From Candidatus Marinacidobacterales bacterium (GTDB taxonomy: Bacteria > Acidobacteriota > Vicinamibacteria > Marinacidobacterales > DATDRI01): a DNA stretch of 64,000 bases. The DNA is taken from the NCBI GenBank assembly GCA_965226495.1, contig OZ245365.1, positions 3,072,001 to 3,136,000 on the forward strand. The letters run 5' to 3'. The position numbers and the translations under genes were made by a program. Below, one piece after another: positions 28,773 through 50,500 of the stretch (the stretch's first letter is position 1; the number at the start of each line of letters is the position of its first letter). The notes beneath the pieces are model-generated. The model ran no database searches. It was not told where the DNA came from and was given only the letters and a program-made list of their open reading frames with translations.

Positions 28773-29753
28773 GTGAAACTGAAGTCAAAGCCTCCAGCCG
28801 AGTCGGATTTCGTGTATCGAAGTTTGCCTCCCTCGGGCAATAAGCTCAACGGCCTGGGCGAGACGGTACCTCGACGAGCGAGCTACGTCTTTCACTCCAA
28901 CGCCAAAACCGGTCCGCTTCCCTGGGACATCATGCAAGCCCATTTTCGCTACACCTATCCGGGGTGGATGCTGCCGGAGCTTCTGACGAGCATGTGGTTG
29001 GCGTTTCGCCCCCAAGGTAAGGTTGCTAGCCAGCGGCGGGAGGTCAACGATCCCGCGGCGATGGCGGCCGAGATCAAAGCGAAGGCAAAAGAGTTGGGGG
29101 CAGGTATCGTCGGAATCTGCAAGATGCGCGATGAGTTCCTGATCGAGGGGACTAGCTCGCCCTATCGCTACGTCATCGCGATGGGTCTACCGATGGACCG
29201 CGAGATCATGTTGGAGGCACCGCGCCTCAAAGCGGGGCGAGAAGTGTTGAGAGTGTACCGTCGCTGCTCGAGACTCACGGTGGACCTGGCGCGCCACATC
29301 CGCTCGATGGGATGGCCGGCGCAGGGGCTGCCCATCAACAGCAGCGGTGAGTACCTACATATCCCCATGGCGACCGCGGCCGGCCTCGGTGAGCTAGGCA
29401 AGCATGGCTCGCTAATATCGAAGGAGTATGGCTCGAATTTCCGGCTCACGTCGGTCGTCACCGACCTACCGATGGCGCTGGATGAACCCGTCGATATCGG
29501 CGTCGAGGACTTGTGCACCCGGTGTCGGGCCTGCACGGTCGAATGCCCGCCGGACGCTCTCTCCGATGAGAAGCAATGGGTACGGGGCACCCAGAAATGG
29601 TACGTGGACTTCGATCGCTGCGTGCCGTACTTCAGCGACAACTACGGCTGCTCGATTTGTCTCGAGGTTTGTCCGTGGTCGGAACCGGACCGGGGACCGG
29701 GCCTCTCGGAAAAGCTTCTTTCCCTGCGCTCCAAGACTGCTCAAACAGCCTGA
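28773..29753 (+). CDS. Reductive dehalogenase/epoxyqueuosine-reductase-like cobalamin and 2x[4Fe-4S] protein
   Basis: AKELGA..VGI, AGLGELGKHG.LI..EYG...RL..V.TDLP, CTRCRACTVECP, VDFDRC...CSICLEVCPW. Confidence 0.8.
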   Translation: MKLKSKPPAESDFVYRSLPPSGNKLNGLGETVPRRASYVFHSNAKTGPLPWDIMQAHFRYTYPGWMLPELLTSMWLAFRPQGKVASQRREVNDPAAMAAEIKAKAKELGAGIVGICKMRDEFLIEGTSSPYRYVIAMGLPMDREIMLEAPRLKAGREVLRVYRRCSRLTVDLARHIRSMGWPAQGLPINSSGEYLHIPMATAAGLGELGKHGSLISKEYGSNFRLTSVVTDLPMALDEPVDIGVEDLCTRCRACTVECPPDALSDEKQWVRGTQKWYVDFDRCVPYFSDNYGCSICLEVCPWSEPDRGPGLSEKLLSLRSKTAQTA

Positions 29754-29760
29754 AACAGAA

Positions 29761-29847
29761 AAACGGGGACAGGAGATCGATTCTTCATCCTTTACTCCCT
29801 CTCCCTCTGGGAGAGGGCCGGTCGGATTCGATCCCCCGTCCCCGTTT
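29761..29847. terminator. Long hairpin with REP-like core between convergent genes
   Basis: Outer stem AAACGGGGAC/GTCCCCGTTT, inner GATCGA/TCGATC, core CCCTCTCCC-TCT-GGGAGAGGG matching the 7317 repeats. Confidence 0.6.
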
Positions 29848-29849
29848 CG

Positions 29850-30464
29850 CTATTTCTGCAAAGCTTCGTGGACTCGGCCTACCAATTCGGGGCCCGGAGT
29901 CAATGTTTGATCTCCTTCGTCCTTCCATTTGGAAGGACAAGCCTCGGCCTGTTTCTTCGCGAGGTACAGATTGGCCTTGAATTTCCTCATCAGCTCGTCG
30001 ATGTTTCGTCCCATGTTGAAGAAATTCACCTCTGAGTTGAGAAGGGTGCCCTCGGGGTTGATGATGAAGGTTCCCCGGAGAGCCAATCCCGCGCCTTCCT
30101 CGTAAACACCGAACATCCGGGACACCTTGCCCGTCGGGTCGGCGCCCATCGGATATTTGACGTTCACCAATTCTTTTTCGTGCCGTTGCCACGCCAGATG
30201 CACGAACTGCGTGTCGCAGCTAACCGTGACGAGCTCCGCACCCATCTTCTTGAAGCGATCGTACTGCTCTGCCAGAGCAGCAAATTCGGTCGCTCAGACG
30301 AATGTGAAGTCGGCGGGATAGAAGAACAGGATAGTCCATTTATTTTGTGACTTGAGACCGTCGAGACTGATGGTCCCGAAATCTCCCTTCACTGGATCGA
30401 ACGTGGCGAGCTCGAAATTGGGCACCGGATGCCCAACTAGTAGCCCGTTTCCGGATTCACTCAT
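29850..30464 (-). CDS. prxU: Selenocysteine-containing peroxiredoxin (AhpC/Prx1-type, PrxU), 204 aa
   Basis: AAGGAGG RBS, ATG 30464, ...WTILFFYPADFTFV[TGA at 30296-30294]ATEF... The TGA occupies the peroxidatic Cys position; the resolving motif EACPSKW is present. Confidence 0.9.
30262..30282 (-). promoter_or_regulatory. Bacterial SECIS-like hairpin
   Basis: TGCTGCTCT-GGC-AGAGCAGTA stem-loop starting 12 nt 3' of the in-frame UGA, with G in the apical loop. Confidence 0.7.
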
Positions 30465-30588
30465 TCCATTTCCTCCTTGAGTTACCTCTCGAGTTCAGCC
30501 TCGTATCATAACTCAATTGAACAGTCCTCCTACGCCCAAAGTGAGCGCTTCGTCATACCTGGCAGGCATCGAGAAAATCCCTGACCTG

Positions 30589-31660
30589 TCAAGAAGTAAA
30601 GGGCCTAATTCGTGAGCACAGGTAGCCCACGAAATACGTCGTAATGGCCCCCAACCGCGACGTTCCACGTCCAGGCCAAAGGCGTCAGAAGGCCGATCAG
30701 CGTGGGCGCAATGAAACCCGCCAACATTCCAACCAGGGGTCCCTGCCGAGGTAGCCCGACGGCTCGAGACGCCGAGCAAGAAAGCACCCACCGTGGGACC
30801 CGACGCGTAGGACAAAGCCGCGAGTCCGGCCTCGAGTGCAGACGAAGCCCGTTGCGCCAACAAGGCGACAATCGCTTGCGCCACCCCCCAGAAGACGGTG
30901 AACATCCGACCCAGGCGTATCTGCTGTGCTTCCCCTGCCCCAGGGTTCAGGTACGGGATGTAGAAATCCTTGAGCGTCGTCGAGGCGAGGCTGTTCAAAG
31001 AGGGAGACAAGGCCGCCGCCACCACCGCCGCCAAGATGAAGCCAGTCCAGGCTCCCGGGAGCTCGTTGGCAATGAACGTCGGAAGGACTTCGTCCCCTCT
31101 TACGAACGACTTCCCCCCATAGAAGGACCAAAGGAGAGCCCCGATCAAAAGGAACAGCGCGAATTGACCGAAGACCACGAACCCGGAAAGAACGAGCCCC
31201 CGCCCAGCTTCTCGCGCGCTCCGCGCGGCCAGGAGTCGCTGAACCAGATACTGGTCCGTCCCATGCGTGGCGAGTGTCAAGAACATCCCTCCGATAACTC
31301 CGGACCACAACGTATACGTTTTCCCGGAGTCGAGGGACAGATCGAGGAATTGGGTCTTGCCCGCCTGCGCCGCGGAAGCAACCGACTCCGAGATCCCACC
31401 CGGCAAGGCATGAGCCACCGCGACCAGGACTGCCAAAGCCCCGGCTAGATAAACGAACATCTGAACGACGTCGGTCCAGATAGTGGCCTTTACCCCGCCT
31501 TCTTCTGTGTAGAACACCATCGCCGCCGCTAGCACCAGAATGAAGTAGGGCTCGGGCGCGCCGACCACCACCGCCACCACCAATGCCGCGGTGTGGAGCC
31601 GAATACCGTCGGCCAAGGTTCGATAGACGAGGAAGACGGTTGCCGCCACGTTGCGGACCG
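30589..31660 (-). pseudogene. Sodium:solute symporter, 5'-truncated, with two homopolymer frameshifts near the C-terminus
   Basis: YT..GGVKATIWTDVVQ, GTDQYLVQRLLAA, LNSLAS; N-terminal TMs missing; extra C (~30738) and G (~30650) disrupt the tail LVGMLAG...VGAITTYFVGYL. Confidence 0.75.
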
Positions 31661-32716
31661 ATGGACGCCTCGGCGGGTGGCGAGAACCGGATGGGTTTTT
31701 ACATCCGTACCCCGGTCGGCGTGGTCAGCGCAATCTCCCCGTTCAATTTCCCGCTCAACCTGGTCGGACACAAGGTAGCGCCCGCTCTTGCCGCGGGAAA
31801 TACTCTCGTACTCAAACCAGCGACCACCACTCCCCTGACCGCAGTGCGACTCGGCGAGATCCTCATGGAAGCAGGCCTTCCCGACGGTGTCTTCAATCTC
31901 GTCTTCGGCAACGGGGCCACGGTGGGCGATTGGCTGGTCACCGACCCCCGCATCGCTAAGATCACGTTCACGGGAAGTCCCCCGGTTGGTCGGCAGATCA
32001 TGAGCCGCGCCGGTTTAAAAAAGGTCACCCTCGAACTCGGGAACAACTCCGGTACCATCATCGAAGATGATGCGGATATCGATCAGGCGGTGCCTCGGTG
32101 CGTGGTTTCCTCTTTTGCCAACTCCGGACAAATCTGCATTAGTCTCCAGCGGCTCTACCTCCACGAGAAGATCGCCGAGGAGTTCACCGATAAATTTCTC
32201 GCCGCCACCGAGAAACTGAAGGTGGGAAACCCTCTCGATCGAGACTGCGATGTGGGACCCATGATCACCGAGTCCGAGGCGGAGCGGGCCGAGGCTTGGA
32301 TGCACGAGGCGTTGCCCAAGGGGCGAAGATCCTGATCGGCGACAGACGGGAAGGCCGGATGCTCTGGCCCACCGTCATGACCGACGTGAAGCCAAACATG
32401 AAAGTGGTTTGCGATGAGACCTTCGCTCCTCAGGTGTCTTTGGTGACCTATCGATCGTTCGACGAGGCTCTCGACCTCTTGGCGGACTCGGCCTACGGCC
32501 TACAAGCCGGCATCTACATCGAGCGACATCAAGAAAGCCTTCCAGGCCATCAAGCGAGTGGACGTAGGCGGAATGATGGTGAACGACACGTCGATCTTCC
32601 GCGTCGATCAGATGCCCTACGGCGGGAACAAGATGAGTGGGATCGGCCGGGAAGGCGTTCGCTTCGCCATCGAGGAGATGACGAATATCCGGATGGTGTG
32701 CTTCAACCTCGCCTAG
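31658..32716 (+). pseudogene. Aldehyde dehydrogenase, 5'-truncated, with frameshifts near 32310 and 32519
   Basis: PVGVVSAISPFNFP, LKPA, FTGS, TLELG, GQICIS, ETFAP, PYGGNKMSGIGREG across three frames. Confidence 0.8.
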
Positions 32717-32803
32717 CGAATCACCTTGCCTTTCGAACAAACGCGGTAAGCTAGGGGAGGCTGCATCGACCGGGTTCCGAAAACCCTGGAGGTCTCACCC
32801 CCA

Positions 32804-33097
32804 TTGAGGCAGCACAGGCTCACTCACGACGAGCTGGCCATCAAGCTCGGCATCAACCAGACCGTCGTCTCGCAATACGAGCGCGGGAAGCTTCGCATGC
32901 ACAGCACTCTCATCGCCGCCTTCGCCAACGCCTTGAAAATTTCCTCCGACGAGATCCTCGGCCTCCAGCGAATCCGAGGAAACGGTTTTATCCAAGACCG
33001 CCGTTTGCTCAGGCGCCTCGAGAAGATGGACTCGCTTTCGAGATCCCAGAAGCCGGCTCTGCTAGCGACTACCGACGCTTTCATCTCGGCCGCCTAG
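32804..33097 (+). CDS. XRE-family transcriptional regulator (start uncertain, possibly degenerate)
   Basis: LTHDELAIKLGINQTVVSQYERG HTH, LKISSDEILG, RRLLRRLEKMDSL. Confidence 0.7.
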   Translation: MRQHRLTHDELAIKLGINQTVVSQYERGKLRMHSTLIAAFANALKISSDEILGLQRIRGNGFIQDRRLLRRLEKMDSLSRSQKPALLATTDAFISAA

Positions 33098-33144
33098 CGG
33101 TACAGGGCCTCGTTTTCCGGCATCGCGCAGGCTACAATAAGGTC

Positions 33145-33369
33145 ATGAAGGTTGTTACGGGCATTGTCGTCGATGGAAAGATCGTGGTCGAGGGCGAACC
33201 TCTGACAGACGGTTCCAAGGTCACGGTCCTAGCTCCCGAAGGTGAGGGCGACACCTTCGAGCTGCCCCCAGAGCAAGAGGCACTTCTCCTCGAAGCCATT
33301 GGTGAGATCGAGCGCGGAGAGGGGATCGACGCCCGGAAGTTCATGAAACAGGTCGGCCAGCGAGATTGA
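33145..33369 (+). CDS. Putative type II antitoxin
   Basis: 74 aa, acidic C-terminus (EALLLEAIGEIERGEGIDA); overlaps the toxin start. Confidence 0.75.
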   Translation: MKVVTGIVVDGKIVVEGEPLTDGSKVTVLAPEGEGDTFELPPEQEALLLEAIGEIERGEGIDARKFMKQVGQRD

Positions 33370-33677
33370 GCGCCCCGCGCGCGATTATCCTCGCACCCAG
33401 AGCCGTGCGCGCCATCGAAAAAGCCTCTGCCTGGTGGGCGGAACACCGCCCCGCAGCTCCCCAAGCCTTTAATGAAGAGCTCGAGCGAGCCTTGGACCTC
33501 ATTTCCACTCACCCTTGGGCTGGCGTGAAAGCGACTAACGTTAAGCTTCTCGGTGTCCGAAGGATCCATCTAATCCTGATTCACTACTACCTCTACTACC
33601 GTTTGAGCCAAGACGGTAAGACCGTGGAAGTGCTCGCACTTTGGCACGCTAGCCGAGGTCCCGGTCCGTCTTTATAG
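33366..33677 (+). CDS. RelE/ParE-family toxin
   Basis: APRA...I.....WW...RP.A...F..EL..AL..I...P..G, VRRI, YYLYYR, VEVLALWHASR. Confidence 0.85.
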   Translation: MSAPRAIILAPRAVRAIEKASAWWAEHRPAAPQAFNEELERALDLISTHPWAGVKATNVKLLGVRRIHLILIHYYLYYRLSQDGKTVEVLALWHASRGPGPSL

Positions 33678-33684
33678 TCCTGAC

Positions 33685-33792
33685 CTCGGGCTCCGGCCGG
33701 CCGACGAGATGCGCCCAATGAGCACCGGCCGTCCTCCGCTCCCTGAGCGCAGAGCCCGTCTTCAAGAACGGGCCTCGGTCATGGTGCTTGCA
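33685..33792 (+). repeat. Conserved ~110-bp element, copy A (inverted partner of 36193-36311)
   Basis: First 15 nt (CTCGGGCTCCGGCCG) identical to copy B; colinear ATGAGC.CC.GCCGTCCT.CGC..CCTG.GCGC.GAGCC.GTC; ends in TCGGTCA.G...CTTGCA. Confidence 0.8.
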
Positions 33793-33976
33793 GTTGAGTG
33801 GGAAAGCGCTGCGCAATCACCTTGCCCTTCGGCCTCCGTTGAGCGCTTCTTCTAACAGGAAGAGACTCCTCGGCCAGGAAGTACCGAGCTTCCCGTCCTC
33901 GGAGCCTCGACATCAAAGCCGTAATCGGCTGACTCAGTCACCCCCGCCCACCCGGGATGGCCGGCCACGCTCGCAT

Positions 33977-34047
33977 GAGCTGCGGCTCTAGCTCATGAGT
34001 CGCGGCCGTGGATGGCTAAGCTGCGGTTCTAGCTCACAAGCTGCGGC
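33977..34047. repeat. ~20-bp iteron-like direct repeats (RAGCTGCGGYTCTAGCTCAY)
   Basis: Full units at 33977 and 34018, degenerate unit at 33997, partial unit at 34038. Confidence 0.6.
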
Positions 34048-34185
34048 AGATGACGCCCGCCCCGCCCCAAGCTCCGGAGGGAGTTGGCCTCGCTTCGCGA
34101 CCGGGCAAGGCTTACGCAGCGGAGCAAGGCCCGCGCCCTCCGCTGGAATGCAATCAACTAAGCTTCGGTCACGTCCCTTGCATCG

Positions 34186-34286
34186 TTGTCCGATAAGGGC
34201 GCCCTTATCGGACCTTGCCCTGCCCAACTCCCTCCTACGGGTCGCCCTACCGGGCGACCTTTACGTAATCGAGGATTACGTACAAG
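34186..34286. other. Two dif/Xer-like dyads (candidate tyrosine-recombinase sites)
   Basis: GTCCGATAA-GGGCGCCC-TTATCGGAC (perfect 26-bp palindrome, 34188-34213) and TACGTAA-TCGAGGA-TTACGTA (34262-34282). Confidence 0.5.
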
Positions 34287-34351
34287 CCCTCGCTGACGCT
34301 CGGGAATTTGGGGCGGGCGAGTGAGAAGATGCGTGCATGAGCCGGCGCCGC

Positions 34352-35791
34352 TCCCGTCTGCCCCCTCCAGGGGGCTCCCACTTGCTTGTCCGCACGTGAA
34401 AAACTTCGCATACTGGTGACATGAGTATTCACGACTGTCGCTTCTTGATCGAGGTGCAGGGCGACTACAAAAAGGTCTGCCGCATTGTCTTCGGAAAAAA
34501 AGACGCGAGCCTTTACCTCCTACCGTACGGACGTCAAAAACGTTACCTCTGGGGTGAAGGCACCATTCCTGAAGGCACCACAACAGCAACGTTCCCCCAT
34601 GCCAATCCCGCAGGCGAAGTGCACAGACCAAAGCTATCTATCCATGAGTCTGGCCAAGTGCACGTGAAACTGGGCGAGGCGTACAAGGCCGGTCCGCTCA
34701 TATCCGTCCCCGTCGGACAAGAACCTCTTTGGGAGTTTCGGGGCGAGCACCAGTTGCAGGGTTAACGATCGACAGCATCGAGTCCTTACCAAGCGCGCAG
34801 AGGTCGTTGGGTCAAGCCCAAACCAAAACCGAACCGTCGCCGGATCTAGTTCTTGGTGCTGCCGAGACATCCAACAGCTACGAACCCGACTCGAGAAAAA
34901 AGGTTTGCGAGCGGCACGTGTCTTCGAAGTCGCTGGTGAGCCTTGTTTCGGAGGAAAAAAAGCTCTCGCAACGCGAACGGAGGAAAGAGCCCAAAACAAA
35001 TGGCGGGACGTGAGGATCGGATACCTCTTCGCCGCTAGGCAAGTCGAAGAGCATCGCTACGAGAACTTGTCCCGAAGGGCGACTACAAAAAGGTCTGCCG
35101 CATTGTCTTCGGAAAAAAAGACGCGAGCCTTTACCTCCTACCGTACGGACGTCAAAAACGTTACCTCGCACCATTCCTGAAGGCACCACAACAGCAACGT
35201 TCCCCCATGCCAATCCCGCAGGCGAAGTGCACAGACCAAAGCTATCTATCCATGAGTCTGGCCAAGTGCACGTGAAACTGGGCGAGGCGTACAAGGCCGG
35301 TCCGCTACGGACAAAACCTCTTTGGGAGTTTCGGGGCGAGCACCTTGCAGGGTTAACGATCGACAGCATCGAGTCCTTACCAAGCGCAGGCAAGCCCAAA
35401 CCAAAACCGAAGTCGCCGGATCTAGTTCTTGGTGCTCGAGACATCCAACAAACCCGACGGTTTGCGATTTACGCCAACGGGGCAGAGCCTAGCTTCGATT
35501 CCCCAGTTAAAGCAAAGATCACAATGAACCGCGCAGGACTCCCTTCTCCATTGCACATCGGGATTACAACTTTTCAGCAGGCTTCCCTGACATCGGACGA
35601 AGAAGGTGGAGTGACAATCATCTGTGGATGGAATCCCGATGACGACGAACTTGCTGAACTACGGATCCTCTGGGTTCGCGCGATCTGAGCATCATCGGTT
35701 CCTGAAGTGTCACGGTAATAGAAAAGGGGCAACACGAATCAAGCTCGTCAGCTTTCTAGCGCAGGGAGCCCCCTTGAGGGGGCGGACGGGA
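34352..35791. mobile_element. Cassette bounded by 28-bp inverted repeats, carrying one orphan gene
   Basis: 34352-34379 TCCCGTCTGCCCCCTCCAGGGGGCTCCC versus 35764-35791 GGGAGCCCCCTTGAGGGGGCGGACGGGA (26/28 complementary); no transposase inside. Confidence 0.55.
34421..35688 (+). pseudogene. Hypothetical ~220-aa beta-rich protein split by an imperfect internal tandem duplication
   Basis: 34458-34877 recurs at 35076-35449 with indels. Joining MSIHDCRFLIEV...YKAGPL to RTKPLWEF...LRILWVRAI gives one ORF. Confidence 0.65.
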
Positions 35792-36192
35792 CCACTGGGG
35801 TGGATCTGCAAAGGGCGTGACCCGAAGGGCGACCCGGGGACCGTGGGTCGCGCGATCCTCCCCCAAGGCCACGACCGCGACGAGCGCAGCGAGGCATCCA
35901 TTACCGGGCGTGGCCGGGATGGGTGTCCCCCCTTGGGGATTCCTTGTTCTGGTGGGGGCGCCTCGGAAGGGGGGATCCAAGGGGGGAAACCAAGGCGGGG
36001 GAGGCGCGGCACGCCCTTTGCCCACCCCGCACCTAAGGGTGGGCGGGGGTGACTGATCCACCGATCACGGATCCAACGTTGAGGCGATGCGTGTGGGAAG
36101 TCCGGTACAGTCTTCCGAACCGCATCGCCTCCTCCTTATTCGAAAGCAACAAGCCGAGAGGGCGCGCCGCTTGCCGCACCGAATCACGCCCT

Positions 36193-36311
36193 TGCAAGTG
36201 GCGTGACCGAAGGCTTCATCAAGAAACCAAGAATGACCGGCTCCGCGCGCAGGCTGCGAAGGACGGCTGGCGCTCATGAAGATCCACCGCGCCAGTCGGC
36301 CGGAGCCCGAG
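36193..36311 (-). repeat. Conserved ~120-bp element, copy B
   Basis: Reverse complement aligns with 33685-33792; internal stems GGCTCCG/CGGAGCC and CTGGCGC/GCGCCAG. Confidence 0.8.
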
Positions 36312-36379
36312 CACGGAGCCGATCCTTTAGAAACGACAGGATTTCAAAGTTCAACTCTCCAAGTAATCCTCCCCGCCTT

Positions 36380-36715
36380 CTATTCGACTCGGTCGCCATC
36401 AACAAAACGCTGCTCTTCTTCAATCTCCCCGTAATCGTTCCAGAAACGCCACAAGCCGTCTTTCTTGCCCTCTTTGTAGTGCCCCCCCGACGCGAGCTGA
36501 CCATTCTCGTGATAGTCTTTCCAAAGTTCCGTTTCTACGCCATGCTCGTAGAGACCCTCCGACGCCAACTGACCGTTGCGATGATGCGCCTGAAACAGCC
36601 CGTGGCGAATCCATCTGTCACCCTCAGGCGATAAATATCGACTGTATCGGAGATGCAATTCCCCAGTGTCGTAGGGAATCTCCGCTACTTCCAAAACTTT
36701 CTTCTGATCCTTCAT
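36380..36715 (-). CDS. Putative immunity protein, YwqK/MORN-variant repeats
   Basis: HG.F...H.NGQLASEG.Y..G....W..YHENGQL...G.Y..GKKDG.W; starts 18 bp after the Rhs stop. Confidence 0.8.
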   Translation of the reverse strand: MKDQKKVLEVAEIPYDTGELHLRYSRYLSPEGDRWIRHGLFQAHHRNGQLASEGLYEHGVETELWKDYHENGQLASGGHYKEGKKDGLWRFWNDYGEIEEEQRFVDGDRVE

Positions 36716-36733
36716 CTGCTATCTCAAGCCTTA

Positions 36734-39700
36734 CTATTTCTTCGGCAAGAAATCACTAGGCTTAAACAGATCTGTTCGTACCGGAAGTCTGGTTTTTGGA
36801 TCATACCGCGTAATTGCAATGGTATCAGGCAAAGCCCCCTCTCGAGCTTCGAAAGCCTTGATGAAGCGGATAATCTCTTGCCGATCTTTTGTGATGTTCC
36901 GGCCAAGCGGTTTGTCATCTATGATGAGACGCCTCCCAAAACTCACCGCGTCCGGTTGAACGGTTTGGGTGCCCTTGCTTGCTTTGGGTTCGCCTGACTT
37001 CAGATCCACCCGCTTGGGAACTCGGATGGGGTTACCCTCGGTGTCCCTGAGTCTCTGATTAACGACATCGAACTCCTTGGACGCACGGCGTTCTGCCGCT
37101 AGCTGGGCATGTACCGTTGTACCTCTTCGTGCAGACTCCGTGTTGCCGCTGTTCTTGGCCCCTTGAGACTGGGTGGCCGCTTTCGGCTGCGTGTTACCAT
37201 TTCTCCCCTCAGCCCGTACGTGTGGTTGAGACTCAGTGTCGCCAGCGTTGCTGGCTGCACTGGAGAGCAGTATTCCAGCAGGCAGTGAGGAACCGGGGCC
37301 TGTAATAGTGACTGAAACGCTGGGGACGCCACCAAGTCGAAGCGCCGCAGCTCCACCTGCGTTGACTACGGTAGCGGGTGCTGGAGTGGCGTTAAAGTTG
37401 ATCTTCGGGAGATTCTGTATGGCCTTGTACGCAAAGAATAACTGGCCGCCTAGCTCACCGGCTCCTGTCGCTGCGCCAAAAACATCACCACGCTCCAAGG
37501 CCTCATCAATATTCCGGATCGGCGCAAGCGCCACTTCCTTCGCAAACTCGCCCGGGTTTTCAAGCGCGAAGGCAGCAGTATTCAGCGCCTGCTCAACTGC
37601 CAATGCCTCCGGCCGAAAAATTGGTAAGCCGCCGGATGCCTTGAAAGCTAAGGCTCCTGTCAAGTTGAACGAGGCCTTAAAGGTTAGGACGAAGGGAGAA
37701 GCAAGTACCTTTCCAAACCCTACAACTGCTCCCCCAAAGGCAATTGCTTGCTGCCTGAGTAACTCTAATTGTGCGGACTCCTCCTGGGAGGATCGTTCGC
37801 ACGATAGGCAGATAGGTAATCGACCGCTTGGATCAACGAACCGGAATGGACTCTGCATTACATAGCTGTAGCGATGCAGGGTCGGTGGACGGTTCACATC
37901 CCCAAGCAAGTTATCCTGGGTCAGGAACCTGCCAATGTCCGGATCATAAAACCTCGCTCTAGCGTAGATAAGACCAGTCTCGTCATCCTTCTCAAGACCA
38001 GTAAAAGTGAACTTATTCGTTGAAGATCCGATGCGCTCACGCTCGTTGCCCCACGCGTCATAGAAGATCGACTCGCGCGCACTCCCAGACCCATCAGTCA
38101 AACTGACAGTCGAACCTAGGATGTCGAGGTGGAAGAAGCTCCGCCCTTCATTCCGGTTGTCCAAGCTTACGAGCTGGTCCAGGCCATAGTCGTACTTGGA
38201 GACCGTGATGCCGTCTTCGTCGGCCTCCGTGATGACGCTGAGCTGGTCGTAGGTGTAATGCCTCCGACCGTCCGCACCGATCTTGAGGATTCGGCGCCCA
38301 TCGAAGTCGTAGCCGTAACGGCCGAGAATGCTCGCTCCTTGCTGCACTTCCCCAAGCTGGTCGCGGATGCTGTACAGGAACCGCGTCTCGACTCCAGCCT
38401 TGGTTTTCGATAGCGTGTTACCGTTTGCATCGTATTCATAGAGGACGTTTTGGGTAGTATCGAGATTATCGGTGATGGTCTCGAGGCGGTTGATGGCGCC
38501 GTAATCGTAGGTGAGGTCCTTGAGAGTCGCGGTTGTGACGGGATCGGTGTCCGTCTCTGTTTTCCGATTACCGACTGGGTCATAGGTGTATGTGACCAGT
38601 CGTCCGTTGCGGAAAGTAGTATCGACAGGATAGTTAACCGTTTCGAGACGGTTGACGGGGTCATACGTGTAGGTCGTGGTCTCGTTGCGGCCGGCGTTGG
38701 TTTCGATCTGGGAGAGTCGGTTCCCGTTGGGTGTGTACTCGTAGGTGTACGCCGAGACGGTGCCACCGGGGCCCTCGTGGTCTATCGAGGTCAGCCGGTC
38801 GGCGGCGTCGTAGTCGAAGGTGGAGACCGTGGCATTCGGGTTGGTAACGGTTTCCTTGAGACCATCGGGGAAGTACGTGTAGACGGTCTGCCCGCCTTCC
38901 GTGGTCAACGTCTCGAGGCGGTTCAAAACGTCGTAAGTATAGACGGTTTCCTTGTTGTCGGGGTCTCTCAGGAGGGTGCGGTTACCCTGGTCGTCGTAAT
39001 CGTAAGTCAGCGTCTTGCCGAAAGTGTCGGTCTCGGTCTCTAGGCGGTCTAAATCGTCGTAGGTCTTGTTATGGATGAAGACCGTAGGCGGGTCGGTGCC
39101 CGAGCTGCGGAGCTCGTCAACTCGAATGAGGTTGTCGTTCGGATCGTACCCAAAATCGATCCGATGCGTTCTCGTGAACAACTCAAAATCCTCCGGAGTT
39201 AAGCTGTAGATCTTCGCCTCCATCCGGTTGAGCTCATCGTATTCGAAATCAATCACTTGCCCCTTGGGATCGGTGAGCTTCGTTTCGTTCCCGTTCGGGT
39301 CGTAGTCGTGGTCGGTGATGAGGTTGAATCCGCTGGGATCCTGAATCATCCGCTCCAGCCGGTTGAGATTGTCGTATCTGAATTCAACGCCGTTGTCCTC
39401 AGCGTCGACCTGGCGGATGCGGTTTCGGTTCTCGTCATAGTCGTACCGGAAGACCCCGGTGTCGGCCATACGGACTTCCATGAGCTCGTTGAGCTCCCCA
39501 TAGTCAAATTCTGTCCTCTGGCCTTCCGGCTCAATCTGCGCCTTACGGTTGCCTTCGCCGTCGTATTCGAACTCGGTGATATTGTTCTCCCCGTCTTCCA
39601 CGAAGCGCAGCCGGTTCAGCTCGTCGTAGGTGTTCTTGATGTCGAAGGGAGAGCCGGTGACGCGGCCGTCCTTCTCCGTGAAGAGGTTACCGACCCTGTC

Positions 39701-45700: not shown

Positions 45701-47524
45701 AAGAGGACGCAGGTTGATGACTCGGGTGAGCCCGGCGAGATGGTCATCGGCTTCATTCCAGCGCTTCAGGTAGTTGAGCGCCCGTTGGCTCAGAATCTCG
45801 CCGGCGCGGGCTTCTGCGGCTTCTTGGAAGGTCGGGGCGCGGCCGGATAATGCGATGGCCGCGTAAGCGCCGGCGATCATCTCGTTTTCGAAATCGAGGC
45901 TCCCTGCTGGGGCCTGGAACTCCACGGTCAAGTCGAACGGCAGGCCCATGCCGATGGGATTGCCGGAAGCGACGACCAAGCCGGCCGAGCGGATGACGGG
46001 CCGTACTTCGATGAGATAAGGCGGCGTGAGGTAGATACTTCCGAAGGCGTTCGAGGTTTCACGATCCTCTGGGGTCGCCGCCACATACGAGAGTGTCAGG
46101 CGCCGACCAAGAAGCCGCGAGGCGGGGAAGCTGGCATCCAGGATGACGTCGCCTTGTCGGTTTCTCGCCAGAAACTGAATGCGATGCTCGAGATCAAACG
46201 GGGCTTCAAACGAGACACCGTTCACGGAGACGATGTCGTACGGGAGGCTGGCCGGGAGCAGGCCGTAAACCTCGGGTTGCGGGTCGACGCGTCTCAGAGC
46301 GTCCTCGAAGCCCGTGCCGGGAAGATTGGCATCGAGGTAGTCGCTCACTTGAGAGCCAAGAGCCTCGAGCGGATCCTCCAACGGATCGGCGACGAACGAC
46401 TCGTCGACAAACGCGCCGGCGTCGAAGCCCATCCCCTCGAGCACCCGGATCCCTTCGTCGATATCATGGAACTTGAAGCTGGCATCGAGCGGGATCCAAC
46501 GTTTTCCTTGATCGTCGAGTCCGGCTCCACGGTAGTTGGAGTAGGGCACGTAGGCTTCGGCCCAGATGTGCTCCATCTCGATGCCCGAGAGTACGCCGCC
46601 AGCCAGGACCGGCTCATAGGGAACCGCGGCGGCGGCGAGGGCTTGTTCCACCCTCTCCCGCTGTTCGACACCAAAGAGGTTCATGGCGGTGTCGATGGGA
46701 AGCTGGATGACGCCACGAACGAAACGAGCGGGGACACCTTCGGCCCGCAGGAGATCCACCAGGAACGCATTGATGTCGGCATCGTTGCCGCGGCCTTCGA
46801 GAAACGTCTGCTCGGAGCCTTTCATCGCGCCAAAGTAGAGCTCGTAACGCGTGTTGTTCTTGACGAACTCGTAGGCGGCGATGGGTCCGTCTAAAGATTC
46901 GGCAAGCTCTTGGATGCTATCGGGCACGCTCCCGATAAGCGAAGCCTCGGGTTTGTCGTCGGCGGCGATGGCGGCCGTCTCCGTCACGCCCGACTTGATC
47001 AGGGGCGGCGCTCTGAACTTGGGGGCACGGAGCGAAAGCTCTTGGGCGCTTAGGATGTCTTCGCGGGTAGCTCGCGCCAAGGGCTCGAGCATAGTCAAGC
47101 AGGCCTCGAGCTCGGCCTGGGTGGGTTGGCTTTGAAGCCGGTCGAGCCCTTCGAGAAGGGCTCCATGGCTGGCCTCGAAGGCGGCGCGGGCTCGCGCCAT
47201 CCTCTCGGAGGCGACACCGGTCAGACCGAGCCGAACGAGCCGTCGCTCAGTGTCGTCGAGGCGGGAGAGGAGGCGTCGGTAATGCCCATCGTACTGTGTG
47301 CGGAGACGTCCGAGCTCGGACCTGACGCGAGGCGACACGCCTTCGGCATCGAGCTGTTGGGAAATAGCCTCGAGACTCTCTTTCAAGCGATGAAGGTCCG
47401 GTCTTGTTTGGGCCCAGGCTTGGGTCCAGGCGGTGGAGCCTACGAGAAGCGTCGCCAGCATCACCGAGAGTACCGGCCCGCGCCTGACGTGCTTGCCCGG
47501 CTTGACCTGTTTCACAGGCATCAC
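36734..47524 (-). CDS. Giant Rhs/YD-repeat polymorphic toxin (3596 aa): signal peptide, transglutaminase-like domain, Ig-like stalk, Rhs cage, PD-(D/E)xK-like nuclease tip
   Basis: Signal ...AWTQAWA|Q; LLRAEGVPARFVRG...HIWAEAY...WIPLDASFK; DUF6531-like GHLV.S.TD..IPGRG..L.V.RTYSS; many YD repeats; FTG.EKD.ETGLIY..AR.YDP..GRFLTQD...PFRFVDPSG; tip RG..VH...PDAV...IIDDKP. Confidence 0.92.
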   Translation of the reverse strand: MMPVKQVKPGKHVRRGPVLSVMLATLLVGSTAWTQAWAQTRPDLHRLKESLEAISQQLDAEGVSPRVRSELGRLRTQYDGHYRRLLSRLDDTERRLVRLGLTGVASERMARARAAFEASHGALLEGLDRLQSQPTQAELEACLTMLEPLARATREDILSAQELSLRAPKFRAPPLIKSGVTETAAIAADDKPEASLIGSVPDSIQELAESLDGPIAAYEFVKNNTRYELYFGAMKGSEQTFLEGRGNDADINAFLVDLLRAEGVPARFVRGVIQLPIDTAMNLFGVEQRERVEQALAAAAVPYEPVLAGGVLSGIEMEHIWAEAYVPYSNYRGAGLDDQGKRWIPLDASFKFHDIDEGIRVLEGMGFDAGAFVDESFVADPLEDPLEALGSQVSDYLDANLPGTGFEDALRRVDPQPEVYGLLPASLPYDIVSVNGVSFEAPFDLEHRIQFLARNRQGDVILDASFPASRLLGRRLTLSYVAATPEDRETSNAFGSIYLTPPYLIEVRPVIRSAGLVVASGNPIGMGLPFDLTVEFQAPAGSLDFENEMIAGAYAAIALSGRAPTFQEAAEARAGEILSQRALNYLKRWNEADDHLAGLTRVINLRPLPSHVMVKNHIEVDYATDESLIALTFEWKGVDVDADLRPSAPVAAEEDDDATRDFFLLSGLVGSDLESRVLEDDLGVTSISTLKLIRLANATGIEVKDIDASNVDDALAEITLEPALEDAIRTQVHLGRLVTAPATDVTLLAWTGGGFVARDPVSGESAYLLSGVIAGGSSAVPPEDFPPDTADALTDPEESQEDPSEKVAAIVKVSEGDFQEGIVAQELEFPLEVFVTDIDGNPVADGASITFRALEPGSVLASLDATEQGQLITVPTQGGFARARFVLGPSTRLRPRFVLGKPSDTFMTQVGLYSVTAESGDVALEEPLVAFAFPDAEEDADGRHARLRLVSGTSDAPRPPLTVSAVPLWAEAVDQFGNPISNIEVTYTVGDAERFSAGPLPAEFTNAQFQLGDGFADAVSGLTAAGGIFTFVKVGDVDATRYFANALLEDTKLGQSRVEFVRDTKDFGSGLVSFPVGERLEVFFAKRGVNLPNGEHLWMGEAGSQLPSNIFYTLRAFQEQWEVITNAQGKAELRGTGRFKERVVTEATVEPVLLDGSGNFEPGAITDSPDGTYQSKLFLGPEPGERRISSRVLAAKLTRPVVDPDTEEVSFVDFTRASPPQEPGFSVWGATVRLRAQEPDPIFVDANGHVEDEPKLTFEILPTEVDTMLRSFNPGRQLRVFQDGSLYVFSELPDGPVEISPNIFFDPSKVYQAEIALLPDTSFELSSERERLNLFNLFIDSAIPAPSPLLTVQEGRFATSGPTAFAYFIQPTEIDWTKAEILLFETDKQTEAETEVARLDGSSLEGAGLAVLDTGFEADILNKDYRAELVVERLAGQRRSTPFRDPFGKLLYNVVHQRNLEFQVDPINQQTCFLPGLLVYHLTEEADVLITVTIDEVEHVLFRGIQDPATVPFERFEFRFDQSGVFEPKPDTHKFRIAAVAVAEPELAEEVQGKLSVRVSSDNVLPVGQTFVKGVGLLDGHLVTSSTDVRIPGRGPALEVVRTYSSSGVSDEGVLGAGWNLNYFSTLVITDCFWTIRGGDGSGQRFTQVGDEFIPQKGYHTELRRNPDGSFDFFTKGRVRFHYVDIELFEGDPLFDGKPTLDFIEDPNGNRIQLSYDSERILEEAREVFADGSEGRVLTFDYENVRGVPRVRRITGPLGLEVTYEYDSFANLIKVTRDERVEEYEYSIGNVRDRHNLTAATDPNGNRTLYIHFEDDDVFPGESGEGLFVQDKFEWVKEVREPEGVTTSFVYDRTRVVTDQEFISRGTDARGNVTTYTLNGNGSPLEINEPGDIITKMEWAVDDITKLKETDANGRVTRFEYDTNANLIKEIIETAELGEVITEFNYDPIFNKMTRKVDAEGRETLFEIDPANGNLLTVTDAELNVTTFEYVPDTGDLELQQGPRDGMVTEFVYDPFGNPETVTDPLSNVTTNVYDERSRLRSSSDTFGRSMTQDFDELDRVETMRRTDGKGSSAEEVIKRTYHPGGQVRTETNGLNLTTEFFLDDLNRVERTEDALGFVTEMFYDGNGNLTGMTDRRGVRTINTYDDLNRLETVEVEGPFSPPQVVSEFAYDDVGNKRFETDVHGHETEFIYDELYRLRTRRLSTEHEETFTYDRVGNKLTESDANERVGVFEYDDLNRLKLLTDPEGNQVQFDYDESGNQTLEEDLTRGLKTEMEYDFLNRPTLRTVGSAIDDFSNVSVFEYEDPAHRVTATDPRGFQTTTGMDGFDRVHQVTRETGTEDLITTNFYDGTGNLRQTRDAEGRVTDFVYDGLNRLKRIEHPLSLVTEFDYDGEGNKTFEKDRRDVVMNFSYDNLGRLTGSEVVPSLTGVPSTTVITYDDVNVKRLERDARGFVTTFEMDGQERVTRIEDPDGNEQVFVYDGVNKREETDKRKFVTKFEYDGLNRLTKVTDALDRELNTVYEDADRQVIETDKRGIVNTTQLDALGRLVSVTRAGITLEQHEYDGNNNRTLSTDANGNQTQFGYDGANRLIDRTDGLGSLVETATSFTYDRVGNLFTEKDGRVTGSPFDIKNTYDELNRLRFVEDGENNITEFEYDGEGNRKAQIEPEGQRTEFDYGELNELMEVRMADTGVFRYDYDENRNRIRQVDAEDNGVEFRYDNLNRLERMIQDPSGFNLITDHDYDPNGNETKLTDPKGQVIDFEYDELNRMEAKIYSLTPEDFELFTRTHRIDFGYDPNDNLIRVDELRSSGTDPPTVFIHNKTYDDLDRLETETDTFGKTLTYDYDDQGNRTLLRDPDNKETVYTYDVLNRLETLTTEGGQTVYTYFPDGLKETVTNPNATVSTFDYDAADRLTSIDHEGPGGTVSAYTYEYTPNGNRLSQIETNAGRNETTTYTYDPVNRLETVNYPVDTTFRNGRLVTYTYDPVGNRKTETDTDPVTTATLKDLTYDYGAINRLETITDNLDTTQNVLYEYDANGNTLSKTKAGVETRFLYSIRDQLGEVQQGASILGRYGYDFDGRRILKIGADGRRHYTYDQLSVITEADEDGITVSKYDYGLDQLVSLDNRNEGRSFFHLDILGSTVSLTDGSGSARESIFYDAWGNERERIGSSTNKFTFTGLEKDDETGLIYARARFYDPDIGRFLTQDNLLGDVNRPPTLHRYSYVMQSPFRFVDPSGRLPICLSCERSSQEESAQLELLRQQAIAFGGAVVGFGKVLASPFVLTFKASFNLTGALAFKASGGLPIFRPEALAVEQALNTAAFALENPGEFAKEVALAPIRNIDEALERGDVFGAATGAGELGGQLFFAYKAIQNLPKINFNATPAPATVVNAGGAAALRLGGVPSVSVTITGPGSSLPAGILLSSAASNAGDTESQPHVRAEGRNGNTQPKAATQSQGAKNSGNTESARRGTTVHAQLAAERRASKEFDVVNQRLRDTEGNPIRVPKRVDLKSGEPKASKGTQTVQPDAVSFGRRLIIDDKPLGRNITKDRQEIIRFIKAFEAREGALPDTIAITRYDPKTRLPVRTDLFKPSDFLPKK

Positions 47525-50500
47525 TCACACACCTGCTGCAGTCGGAAACCCTCGACATGAACTTTCGGATTTCCAATGGAAACGATCCCGAAGCTCCTCA
47601 CTCCGGCATCCAAAACGACGCGCACCGGCACCGTCCACTCGAAAGGACCTTGCCCGTTGACTGGATCGGCAAAGTCGAACTCTTGTCCGTTCTCGAAAAC
47701 CACTCTCAGGTTGGGCTGATTGGAACCGTTCGTGCCGCGCTGGAGTAGGAGCTGGAATTCATACATGCCCGCTTCGAGGAAAGGTGTTTGAACCACCAAG
47801 ACGCCGTCATTTTTCTTCACCCAATAGGAGTGCTTGGCGCCGCACGCACCGGGCCCCGAATGACCCACGTGCCCGTGCCGGGCCACGATCCACTTACTGA
47901 GCCCGGTCTTCTTGTGGAAGCCATCGTCCAGACAGAACTGTGAGACATCGGGGCAGGTCTCTTCGACGTCGCAGACGCCGTCTCCGTTCTCATCCCCGGA
48001 GATGCCGCTGTCGTGTCCGGAGAGCTCACCGACATGGAAGTTGTCCCACGCGGCGCGCGAGTGGTCGACAAACGCACCGATGGTCCCCCCGACAAAAGGA
48101 TGGTGACTATCCACCGCGTCGAGCCACCACTCGTTGAGCACCGTGCGCTCGGCGTCCACGAGCCTCAGGTGAGCGCGGATCGACGTCTCGCCCGATTGAT
48201 GCACGGTTTCGATCTCGAACTCGAAGAACTGTCCGTCCATGTCAGGCATGTCAGGCATGTCGGGGCGTTCGACCGAGGTCGAGGTCAAGGTGCTAGCCTT
48301 GCCTTTCTTGAACTTGACCAGCCTTGCCCGAGGATTATTGCAACCGGTGATCTCGAACCGATATTCGGTCTGGGCTTCCGGATCGGCGTAGAACGCGACG
48401 CCCGCGCCGAAGCAGGACTTTTTCTTCTTGTCCGTCCCGCCAAGGTTGCCCAGGTGGGCGAGCGTCAGGTCACCGCCGAACGCGTAATTCTGCCACGTGA
48501 GAGCCTCGCCCGAACCGACAAACAGGAGCGCTCCTTCACCGGGACGCCGGCTCTGCAGCACCTGGGACTCTGCGCCGCGGTCGACGGCGAAAAGAACGCC
48601 TTCGCGTCGGTGCCCATTGTCACTAGAATCGTCGTCGCTGGAATCGGCGTCACTCGAGTCGTCATCGGAACTGCTGTCATCGGAACTGCTGTCGTCGGAA
48701 CTGCTGTCGTCGTCCTTGTCCTTGTCGATGCGAAGCCACCAATCCGCTGGAGTGCTCCCGAGCAAGAAGCCCTCGAAGTCCTCGCGCCACTCCGGCGGAC
48801 ACACGCCTCCGATGAGGACCACGGTGAACTGGAAGGTATCGCTCCAAGGTCCTGGTAGACCGAGCTCGTCGATCGCTCGGGCCCGCCAGTAGTACGTGAC
48901 GTCCGGCGTGAGCTCGACGGGGACATCCCAACCCGTGGTGTCGTCGCCTTCTGTGACGTTCTCGACGTTCTCATCTTGGGCGATCAGGTCTTGGAATGCC
49001 GGGTCGGTGGCGATTTGGAAATGATAGTGAAGCGCCAAAAGATCGGGGCTGGTTGCGTTCTCCACCTCGAGCCGCACGGCGGTGCTCGCCACTTCGCTCT
49101 CATTGGCTGGCGCGATCGGTCTGGGGGCGGTTGGCTCATCACGGACTGCGTTGATGCGGAAACGGAAGAGGTCGCTCGGGTCGCTCTGGAGGAGTCCGTC
49201 GGTAGCGATGGCGTGCCAGTAGAAGACCCCGTTCTCGTTGAGGTCCTCGGTAACTTGCCACGTGGTTCGCGGATCGCCCTCGTCGATTTCCGGACTCTCG
49301 ATGACCAAGCTATTCCGATCGACATCCGAGAAGATCTGGAAGATGTAGCGGAGCACGTCGCCATCGGGATCGCCCGCGTTCTCCACTTCGAGCACCGGCG
49401 CGGCGATGTTCACTTCGGCGCCGTCGGCCGGGCTGACGGAAGTGGGACTCGCAGGGTTTTCATTGATGGCCGAAACGCGGAAGCTCGCCGTCGGCGTGAA
49501 CGGCCCGTCGAAGACACCGTCATTGGCTCGAGCGCGCCAGTAGTAAACGACGTTCTCATCCAGCGGCACGGGAATCTGCCATGAGGTCTTGTCGGGCTCT
49601 TCCACAATCTCCGGCGAGGCGACCACCAGGTCGGCCAGAAGCTCGTCGCGGTAAAGCTCAAAGCGGTAGGTCAACGGGTCCCCGTTGGGATCGGTGGCAT
49701 TGACGACCGTCAGAATGGGCTGGGGATCCGCGACTCGGCCACCGTCGGGTGGCGAATCAATAGACGGGGCCGTCGGCGTCTCGTTCATCGTGTTGACGCG
49801 GAAGGGCTCGGCCAGCGACCAGTCGCTCGCCGTCTCGTCGTCGTTGGCGCGGCAGCGCCAGAAGTACGAACGGCCGTTTTCGAGCTGAGGTGAAACCGCC
49901 CACCGCGTCTGGTCTTCGCCCTCGCGGATCCGATCGACGACCGCCACTCGTTCGGTCAATGCCTCGTCGGAATAAACCTCGAAATCATAGGTGAGTGTGT
50001 CGTCTTCTGGATCGGTGCTGTTCATGGCGGCCAGCGGTGGCGTGACGGTCTCTACGATGACGCCATCGGTAGGACTCTGAGGCGTGGGGCTCGAGGGACC
50101 TTGGTTGGCCTCATCGACCCGGAAGCTCACGATGTCGGACCAATCACCCACCGCCAGCCCGTCGGTGGCCCGAGCTCGCCAGAAGTAAACCACGTTCTCT
50201 GCCAGCGCTTCGGGCACCGGCCACCGAACTTTGTCTAGGTCGGGGTCCACGTCGGGCCCGCTAGGCCCGCTAGGCCCGCTAGGGAAGACGCCTTCGGCTC
50301 TCCGAACCGCCGGCGAGTCGAAGCGATCGGTGGTGTCGATCTCGAACGTATAGGTGAGCGGGTCCCCTTCGGGATCGTTAGATGGGCCGATAACCAGATC
50401 CGGCGACACCGTGGGTGACGTGCCGATCGGCGAGAGCGGCGTCGGTGCGGTCGGGGCCTGGTTGCCGGTATTGATCCGGAAAGAGGCTCTGGTCATCCAT

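Follow-up and report, generated by a model that had tools for sequence, protein, structure and literature searches.

The 64,000-nt stretch of contig OZ245365.1 analysed here (the window, in whose coordinates all positions are given) carries between positions 33685 and 36311 an array in which two long units face each other across a passenger gene, with the layout head-(tandem array)-body-tail, gene, tail-body-head. The units are 0.55-0.7 kb long (548-695 nt), the left one occupying 33685-34379 and the right one 36311-35764, and each runs in the sense orientation of the operon whose stop codon it follows. The two heads (A on the left and B on the right) are homologous and their ends are conserved, the left body (L) folds strongly, and the same order of modules, with variation of the modules themselves, recurs elsewhere. 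Our preferred reading, which we hold tentatively, is that the array represents two opposite copies of a modular, hairpin-rich, non-autonomous interspersed repeat of the kind exemplified by repetitive extragenic palindromic sequences (REPs), bacterial interspersed mosaic elements (BIMEs) and BOX elements.

Heads A and B form an inward-facing inverted pair

Head A and the reverse complement of head B are colinear from end to end over 269 and 275 nt, with a local alignment score of 72, where 200 shuffles averaged 18.7 and reached at most 32 (z about 22), and 169 of the 260 aligned positions (65%) are identical, with 24 gap columns. The lengths of the indels are not multiples of three. The initial annotation, made from the sequence alone, had described an inverted pair facing inward, and this score bears the description out, whereas the 110-120 bp that it assigned to each element has to give way to a homology of 269/275 nt. 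It had also called the elements self-complementary, and here some folding is indeed predicted, though the self-complementarity of the heads is modest, with RNA fold z-scores of -2.2 for A and -3.1 for B. No further copies of A/B, of body L or of the right body (R) were found in the 64 kb with blastn at word size 7 or with nhmmer profiles.

The two longest identical runs between A and B lie at the extremes of the alignment, in its first 15 and its last 20 columns. By arithmetic, a 20-nt identical run at 65% identity is expected about 0.02 times, and the 20-mer of the inner end (33934-33953 and 36037-36056) occurs twice in the window compared with 0.02 occurrences expected. One strand of this conserved 20-mer contains GGGGTGAC, which fits the motif GGGGWSAS, described in a survey as occurring in some inverted repeats that flank Y1 transposase genes (PMC3733652). 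By our own arithmetic about one match to this motif is expected by chance in the region, and we take it as a lead only.

Head A begins 7 nt past the stop codon of the ParE-family toxin gene (33675-33677), and head B begins 68 nt past the stop codon of the presumed immunity gene (36380-36382), or 33 nt past it if an outer flank that B shares with a homologue in another contig is counted. The placement of copy A directly 3' of a toxin stop codon is therefore sound, the toxin being of the ParE family (PF05016) and not RelE as labelled, and the distance of about 70 bp given for copy B is likewise right, as is the broader claim that the elements are noncoding, have ends that are defined and conserved, and each lie immediately 3' of a gene.

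The exact and inverted repeats suggest the possibility of a switch, in which the 20-nt or 15-nt inverted repeats would be the sites of an invertase encoded in trans and the intervening 2.1-2.6 kb would flip, joining the passenger to either the ParDE or the Rhs-immunity transcript. The presence of two exact copies where 0.02 are expected and their symmetric arrangement between two convergent operons agree with such a switch. In opposition to it, the homology spans 270 nt and is not a short site, no invertase domain was found in the window, and the junction of head, 20-mer and body recurs in colinear form in other contigs, which places the 20-mer inside a repeat unit. We consider an inversion switch very unlikely.

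The same modules recur in other contigs

Translated searches with the arms matched open reading frames (ORFs) in public protein sets that appear to be spurious genes (P0028-P0036 in our numbering). The open forward frame across L gave two protein matches among 46 candidates. P0029 (179 aa, on a contig of 1270 bp) is a single ORF in which a head of A type, the 20-mer and a body of L type follow one another. Over the region of a 24-nt palindrome in L, 23 of its 23 residues are identical to the translation of the window, and its contig lacks 22 codons (66 nt) exactly at the position of the tandem array of the window. Relative to this single ORF the window copy shifts frame at least five times, as expected of noncoding DNA. 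A phmmer search with P0029 against 1.84 billion cluster representatives returned eight matches at E ≤ 1e-3, six of which are short ORFs that map onto the arms (tblastn, best E of about 6e-9 to 6e-17). P0033 and P0037, which are long repetitive proteins with no tblastn match to the region, were dropped.

P0032 begins at the outer 15-mer of head A, P0030 and P0031 span the junction between the 20-mer and L, and P0034 passes from an L-type body into the 28-mer of the tail (9 of 9 residues) and then into unrelated sequence. P0035 combines a B-type head, including about 35 nt of the outer flank of B, with the start of an L-type body, and matches the window at 36252-36094, 36061-36038 and 36347-36225. 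Altogether, head A has translated matches in P0029, P0032 and P0036, and body L in P0028, P0029, P0030, P0031, P0034 and P0035. Because the same head-body-tail order is present in independent contigs, the arms constitute a repeat family, and the earlier proposal that the elements recur as a family in other contigs is supported through these translated spurious ORFs. As judged from these translated fragments, the modules would assort, with a head of A or B type, a tandem array that is present or absent, and a body of L or R type.

No annotation exists for this family, which is large and modular and folds strongly. An exact scan for the 20-mer in a collection of genome contigs that does not include the source genome gave no match, and neither did blastn in distant mode with 33685-36311 against collections of plasmids and phages. 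The Rfam check that the initial annotation had called for returned no matches at gathering scores over the whole 64 kb, and a relaxed scan at E ≤ 5 of 33300-36800 returned only mir-981, a chance match at 15 bits compared with a threshold of 51. Text searches of the literature, which were not made by sequence, found no description of the repeat family, and this is weak evidence that it is undescribed. A coding reading of the arms was ruled out by the lack of Pfam matches, the biased composition and the changes of frame relative to P0029; Pfam identified no family in any frame of the arms or in the spurious ORFs. Gene callers turn copies of the repeat into hypothetical proteins, at least eight of them in public sets, and recognition of the family removes these false genes.

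Anatomy of the arms

A unit comprises a head of about 270 nt, an optional short tandem array, a body of about 250 nt and a 28-nt GC hairpin as its tail. In the left unit, head A is followed by a tandem array, body L and a tail. The "iteron-like" repeats of the initial annotation correspond to this array, which exists and is weak, a 20-nt unit being repeated 3.7 times with 60% matches. Body L is a multi-hairpin fold made up of a closing stem, a perfect 12-bp stem, an 8-bp stem, a perfect 24-nt palindrome (34189-34212) and hairpins at 34241-34260 and 34262-34282. Its predicted fold has a z-score of -7.2 as DNA and of -6.6 (plus strand) and -7.7 (minus strand) as RNA, with 0 of 200 shuffles as good, and for the minus strand the minimum-energy and centroid structures nearly coincide. 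A 19-bp inverted repeat predicted at 34061-34079 and 34299-34317 is real, being 84% complementary over 19 nt, and forms the closing stem of L; the two "dif-like dyads" said to lie inside it are instead three different hairpins, each unique in the window.

Body R is of another kind. It forms a long imperfect hairpin, and the 347-nt stretch that contains it (35690-36036) folds with a z-score of -2.6. No homology between L and R is detectable (score z of 1.9; no nhmmer match). When scored against B, L and R reach z-scores of 4.8 and 3.0, values obtained with mononucleotide shuffles only. The idea that L and R are themselves diverged heads was rejected, because an alignment of all four modules (A, B, L and R) was unconvincing and nhmmer gave no match.

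The tails are complementary to each other at 26 of 28 nt (93%), so that the 28-bp inverted repeat reported to enclose the passenger gene (34352-34379 and 35764-35791) stands as described. Both copies have the form ..CGTC-(T/C)-GCCCCCT-nn-AGGGGGC.., in which CGTC lies beside a 7-bp GC stem. In the 64 kb the hairpin core of the 28-mer has two exact copies and one chance-level match with two mismatches, and apart from the 28-mer no global palindrome was detected in the inner arms. The coordinates of all of these modules are collected in Table 1.

Table 1 Features of the array, its passenger gene and the neighbouring genes, in coordinates of the 64-kb window
Feature	Position	Strand	Remarks
Head A, left unit	33685..33953	+	Outer 15 nt and inner 20 nt identical to head B
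Weak tandem array	33974..34047	.	Tandem Repeats Finder (TRF): 3.7 copies of 20-nt unit, 60% matches
Body L, multi-hairpin fold	34054..34319	+	265 nt; supported by fold z and translated matches to other contigs
Left tail, 28-nt GC hairpin preceded by CGTC	34352..34379	+	41 nt before ATG of passenger copy 1
Passenger copy 1	34421..34910	+	N-terminal part intact to about codon 93; ORF stop at 34765
Passenger copy 2	35076..35688	+	Lacks first 12 codons (starts inside codon 13); 10-nt deletion
Right tail, 28-nt hairpin	35764..35791	-	75 nt past passenger stop
Body R, long imperfect hairpin (35797-36028)	35792..36036	-	GC 71%
Head B, right unit (36311-36037), with some 35 nt of its outer flank	36037..36347	-	Flank also in P0035 contig
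AhpC/TSA fragment	29850-30245	-	Profile positions 59-121 of 124
Sodium:solute symporter without N-terminus	30513-31649	-
Aldehyde dehydrogenase without both ends	31583-32754	+	Frameshift near 32300
Helix-turn-helix (HTH) gene	32804-33097	+	Upstream of putative antitoxin
Putative antitoxin, 74 aa	33145..33369	+	3' end shares 4 nt with ParE start
ParE-family toxin, 103 aa, complete	33366..33677	+	PF05016, E 4.4e-12
MORN-repeat protein, 111 aa, presumed Rhs immunity	36380..36715	-	PF07661, E 1.7e-9
Rhs-family polymorphic toxin, 3596 aa	36734..47524	-	PF05593, E 2e-93; PF03527

Repeat units, cassette arms or RNA domains

If the units are interspersed repeats, as we tentatively favour, they would be selfish, non-autonomous mobile DNA that settles in the tolerant space downstream of genes and relies on an enzyme encoded elsewhere to move it in trans. 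The likeliest such enzyme would be a single-strand transposase of the HUH/Y1 type, because the units have hairpins and lack terminal inverted repeats and target duplications. Once co-transcribed, the units might act as 3' hairpins that end or stabilize the upstream mRNA (that of ParDE on one side and of Rhs-immunity on the other), and they might also insulate the convergent operons from each other. Of the two spacers, that from parE to the passenger is filled by one unit and that from the passenger to the immunity gene by the other, and on the favoured reading the inward-facing arrangement would result from two independent insertions, each in the sense of transcription, around a pre-existing gene.

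A number of observations weigh against this reading. Only two copies are present in 64 kb containing about 35 intergenic spacers, which is far under the densities of REP and BOX elements, and the units are 3-10 times larger than a typical REP or BOX element or a typical MITE (a miniature transposable element with inverted repeats). The evidence for the family outside the window consists entirely of translated spurious ORFs, and no empty site, target duplication or near-identical copies support the presumed mobility of the units. The tight and symmetric bracketing of the passenger, with tails at 41 nt and 75 nt and identical outer termini, fits a two-armed cassette at least as well. As for a role in RNA, RNAalifold identified nine compensatory pairs between A and B, a covariation that is circular because the structure was fitted to the same two sequences, and when the structure predicted from A alone was examined in B, 19 of 51 changed pairs were kept, compared with 17-26 of 52-59 in slid controls. 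A consensus scan for promoters and terminators, of little informative value, gave no promoter-like sites and two terminator-like sites, where shuffles gave 4.4 on average.

Chief among the alternatives is one cassette with long arms in inverted orientation, a reading that is live even though we think it doubtful. It would be a non-autonomous element resembling the mobile insertion cassettes (MICs), in which the arms would be long terminal inverted repeats and the 1.38-kb core the passenger, the whole 2.6 kb having been inserted between the convergent parE and immunity genes by a transposase or recombinase encoded in trans. This would account for the outer termini, which are a perfect 15/15 inverted repeat, for the inversion of the inner 20-mers and 28-mers as well, and for the way in which the arms hug the gene. 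The GC content of the passenger (54.5%) is under that of the arms (64-71%) and of the window (60%), the passenger family has a patchy spread over the phyla and no neighbours that are conserved (8 loci in 7 lineages), and the passenger gene is found without this ParE, all of which are in keeping with a cassette. Moreover, P0034 enters a different sequence past its 28-mer, as if the arms abutted different cargo. Set against these points are the lack of a target-site duplication, the flanks being ...CCTGAC and CACGGA..., and the divergence of the arms, since an active element does not usually have heads that are only 65% identical and bodies that are unrelated at its two ends. Paired homologous arms are known from no other contig, no transposase domain was found in the 64 kb, and the homology between B and P0035 runs about 35 nt past the supposed terminus.

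There is also a slender chance that the head-body-tail units are the working ends of an undescribed cargo element that has no recombinase of its own. In that case inverted arms with the conserved 15-mer, 20-mer and 28-mer would be moved or inverted as a pair by a trans-encoded enzyme, possibly of the HUH type, the cargo would be delivered to the 3' flanks of toxin operons, and the arms would double as RNAs of the 3' untranslated region (3'-UTR). Were the arms to move cargo, or to serve toxin operons as 3'-UTR RNAs, the family would be relevant to the remodelling of TA and Rhs neighbourhoods. As things stand, the units add modestly to the interspersed repeats catalogued in bacteria, being of larger size and greater modularity than is usual, and the family marks plastic spots beside toxin loci.

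It is similarly unlikely, in our judgement, that the units are the genes, or the 3'-UTR domains, of a new structured RNA of about 0.6 kb, present as two diverged paralogues and transcribed from or with the toxin operons. The predicted folds of L are very strong on both strands, with minus-strand structures that nearly coincide, and a hairpin of the heads (alignment columns 189-239) keeps its pairing through three consecutive double changes. The copies are old (35% divergence) and yet their end motifs are exact, both are in the sense of the upstream operon, and no Rfam family matches them, as would suit a new RNA. In contrast, the non-circular pairing test was negative, the promoter scan was empty, and only two DNA copies are available for covariation. 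The stems of L are almost all perfect Watson-Crick and fold equally well on either strand, a behaviour more typical of palindromes in DNA, and L and R, which occupy the same position, are unrelated. We grade the evidence for RNA structure as weak, and both a structured-RNA gene and an inversion switch lack positive evidence.

The passenger gene

The "orphan gene" of the initial annotation is bracketed by the 28-nt inverted repeat as it was said to be, but it is in fact two partial tandem copies of the gene of a conserved protein of about 222 aa. Over the stretch that they share (34458-34910 in copy 1 and 35076-35467 in copy 2; 393 nt) the copies differ by no substitutions and by nine indel blocks, with the extra sequence in copy 1 in nine of the nine (10, 14, 1, 2, 13, 2, 2, 6 and 11 nt). 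By comparison with the protein family, copy 2 has suffered a deletion at the 10-nt block, whereas the other blocks are insertions in copy 1. Past about codon 93 copy 1 has 51 extra nt in eight blocks (14, 1, 2, 13, 2, 2, 6 and 11 nt) relative to copy 2. The copies are separated by 165 unmatched nt (34911-35075), and copy 2 is otherwise colinear with the protein family through the stop codon. A virtual crossover in a 139-nt identical block restores an intact frame of 219 aa, which is identical to P0001 at 206 of 219 residues and to P0009 at 142 of 142.

A duplication that differs by indels only is unlike ordinary divergence, and points either to an odd rearrangement of very recent date or to a mistake in the assembly. 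This has a bearing on whether the inverted arrangement as a whole is an artefact of assembly, for which the unnatural look of the tandem partial duplication (393 nt, no substitutions and nine one-sided indel blocks) would speak. The arms, however, differ at 35% of positions and have different bodies, which is beyond a fold-back misassembly, and homologous units are present in independent contigs. An assembly origin of the inverted pair is thus extremely unlikely, and since the arms are diverged and the units recur in other contigs, the question of an artefact is limited to 34458-35467.

At the junction of copy 2, TGTCCCGAAGGGCGAC (35068-35083) matches body R at 35818-35833 in 15 of 16 positions, a match that is borderline against chance; the pair may be a microhomology that was used in the rearrangement. 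A second site of interest lies near codon 141 (about 34876 in copy 1 and 35450 in copy 2), where P0008 and P0009, both 100% identical over residues 1-141, stop or diverge right past the residues DIQQ. A 6-nt block in copy 1 (34877-34882) lies next to this site, copy 1 departs from copy 2 about 30 nt further on, from 34911, and the 55-residue tail of P0008 is encoded nowhere in the window. The site at codon 141 may be a hot spot of insertion or recombination.

Of 182 candidates in the homology search with the passenger, 18 matched at E ≤ 0.01, and the best of these is 94% identical. P0008, which is 100% identical over residues 1-141, is on a contig of 2.1 Mb, whereas the best database match of the ParE toxin is 91% identical and its matches are on contigs of 6.6 kb or less, from which it follows that the passenger gene occurs without this ParE. 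Distant relatives, at 32-38% identity, were confirmed at 8 loci of 37 pattern matches and represent seven lineages. The lineages of the family include Ignavibacteria, Anaerolineae, Actinomycetota, Wallbacteria and Chitinophagales, with neighbours that vary, and Pfam scans of 19 neighbouring ORFs at 7 loci identified no conserved neighbour. Residues that are invariant in the family (P0001-P0018 and loci L001-L007) include three histidines, two aspartates and one cysteine.

The protein matches no family in Pfam, NCBIfam, PHROG or PADLOC. Its AlphaFold model is all beta-strand (predicted local distance difference test, pLDDT, 84; predicted template modelling score, pTM, 0.85) and has no fold match in the PDB at E ≤ 0.001, and a search of the ESM Atlas gave scores of 0.83 or less and no lead. 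The possibility that the passenger is itself a recognisable recombinase or transposase was rejected on the lack of family matches, the all-beta model and the lack of PDB matches.

Comparison with interspersed repeats and mobile cassettes

The BOX elements of Streptococcus pneumoniae provide a close architectural parallel. In their published description (PMC3049150) they consist of a boxA module, a variable tandem of boxB and a boxC module, 67-637 bp in all, are enriched between convergent genes, and have extensive RNA folds that are thought to affect co-transcribed genes; large copies create ORFs, and Streptococcus suis has alternative end modules. The units in the window likewise have a head, a 20-nt tandem and a body, have heads of A and B types, and give rise to spurious ORFs (P0028-P0036). 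This likeness is one of architecture and not of homology, was drawn by comparison of descriptions, and concerns an array from a high-GC genome. BOX elements also differ in having terminal inverted repeats and target duplications, neither of which was seen in the units of the window.

REPs, according to a survey (PMC3733652), are found for the most part between ORFs that converge or run in the same direction, in many cases at less than 20 bp from 3' ends, and one class of them consists of CGTC-tagged, GC-rich palindromes of 20-40 nt. The 28-mer of the window has CGTC beside its GC stem in both copies, a resemblance that concerns the tail only and not the whole unit, and the units start 7 nt and 33-68 nt past stop codons. 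Furthermore, GC-rich palindromes near convergent genes' 3' ends, frequently in head-to-head pairs, are a feature that the array has in common with REPs. In the same account REPs of 20-40 nt are found in hundreds per genome, whereas the 28-mer of the window forms the tail of a unit of 0.55-0.7 kb that occurs twice in 64 kb. REPtrons and TIRtrons, which are genes flanked by inverted repeats, have been described along with repeat families of this sort in groups that include the Acidobacteria (PMC3733652), but the flanked gene in the window, which matches no families and has an all-beta model, is not a Y1/HUH transposase.

A MITE would have ends that are inverted repeats of each other. The 5' end of the unit (CTCGGGCTCCGGCCG) and its 3' end are not, and no direct repeats that would indicate a target duplication are present at the flanks of the units or of the pair. 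In MICs, inverted ends bracket a passenger and no transposase lies inside (PMC3913671). The array has inverted ends around a passenger gene, with no transposase found inside, but compared by description it differs in its arms of 0.55-0.7 kb, its 65% identical heads, its unrelated bodies and the lack of a target duplication.

Integron and Xer-type sites

The attC sites of integrons are single imperfect hairpins of 57-141 nt bounded by RYYYAAC and GTTRRRY cores, and in clusters of attC sites lacking integrases (CALINs) the elements lie 3' of cargo-type genes with no recombinase nearby. The array shares with these systems a noncoding, structured site directly 3' of a cargo gene, and the initial annotation had accordingly seen in it the att-like ends of a tyrosine-recombinase element, reminiscent of attC, that shuffles Rhs toxin tips, immunity genes and TA modules. 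Its statement that no recombinase gene is present holds for the 64 kb, where Pfam scans of 35 of the 37 non-overlapping ORFs of at least 60 aa found no recombinase, integrase or transposase domain (the other two being short antisense ORFs at 155-451 and 33132-33569). The tyrosine-recombinase ends lose their footing by the same scans, no such domain having been found. The likeness to attC also fails, as no RYYYAAC...GTTRRRY pair 45-145 nt apart is present on either strand of 33600-36400, and the units are 4-10 times too long and are inverted, not co-oriented. Nor was shuffling of tips, immunity genes or TA modules apparent, since tblastn of 29700-36379 with the Rhs, immunity, ParE and antitoxin proteins found only the genes themselves.

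Dyads of the form 11-N6-8-11 are present at 8.6 per kb in 33600-36400 compared with 5.7 per kb window-wide. The 24 dyads of this region (overlapping ones counted) have no shared sequence and include no repeated 11-6-11 site of the Xer type, and neither the dyad at 34189-34212 nor that at 34262-34282 has a second copy in the window. The dyad at 34186-34215 has ATAA-N8-TTAT symmetry. The dif (pdif) modules of Acinetobacter, as two reports describe them, are small, often contain TA or orphan genes, and have inversely oriented sites and no recombinase (PMC6449649, PMC13141974). They differ from the array in that no 28-bp XerC-6-XerD site is repeated here and in that the array is on a chromosome and not on a Rep_3 plasmid.

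A platform of integron (attC/CALIN) or Xer-dependent type for the shuffling of Rhs tips, immunity genes and TA modules would be consistent with elements 3' of cargo-type genes and no recombinase found nearby, as in the dif modules (PMC6449649, PMC13141974), and with the symmetry of the dyad at 34186-34215. It is highly improbable given the lack of attC core pairs, the length and inversion of the units, the finding that no two dyads are alike despite their density, and the finding of no Rhs, immunity or ParE fragments in or beside the array.

Flanking genes

The window has a GC content of 60%, appears to be chromosomal DNA of a GC-rich bacterium, and contains metabolic genes that include a hydantoinase, enzymes of the xanthine dehydrogenase type and TonB-dependent receptors; no tRNA was found in the 64 kb. 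Its mix of domains would suit a member of the Acidobacteriota. The array sits between two convergent toxin loci, ParDE on the plus strand and Rhs-immunity on the minus strand (Table 1). Homologues of the ParE toxin, 101-104 aa in length, share its C-terminus. The 74-aa ORF has no match in Pfam, NCBIfam or PADLOC and is probably the antitoxin, as judged by its position upstream of ParE, and the MORN-repeat protein is presumed to provide immunity to Rhs from its position after the rhs gene. The C-terminal 488 aa of Rhs, past the end of the conserved core (window 36734-38200), match no Pfam family, and this tip may be an uncharacterised toxin domain. The GC content of the tip is 54% and that of the MORN immunity gene 52%, both under the 60% of the window.

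Immediately upstream of the TA module, gene fragments occupy 29850-32754, and this neighbourhood looks repeatedly rearranged. On the other side of the array, 47521-63960 encodes a protein of more than 5479 aa that runs off the window and is composed of CARDB, Ig-like, fn3 and PKD domains; because its stop codon overlaps the start of rhs by 4 nt, this giant gene and rhs are probably one operon. Further away, a DUF6036 nucleotidyltransferase-like ORF (11806-12183, minus strand) lies beside a small ORF and an HTH_3 protein (12377-13204, minus strand), and the DUF6036/HTH_3 pair at 11806-13204 may be another toxin-antitoxin-like module.

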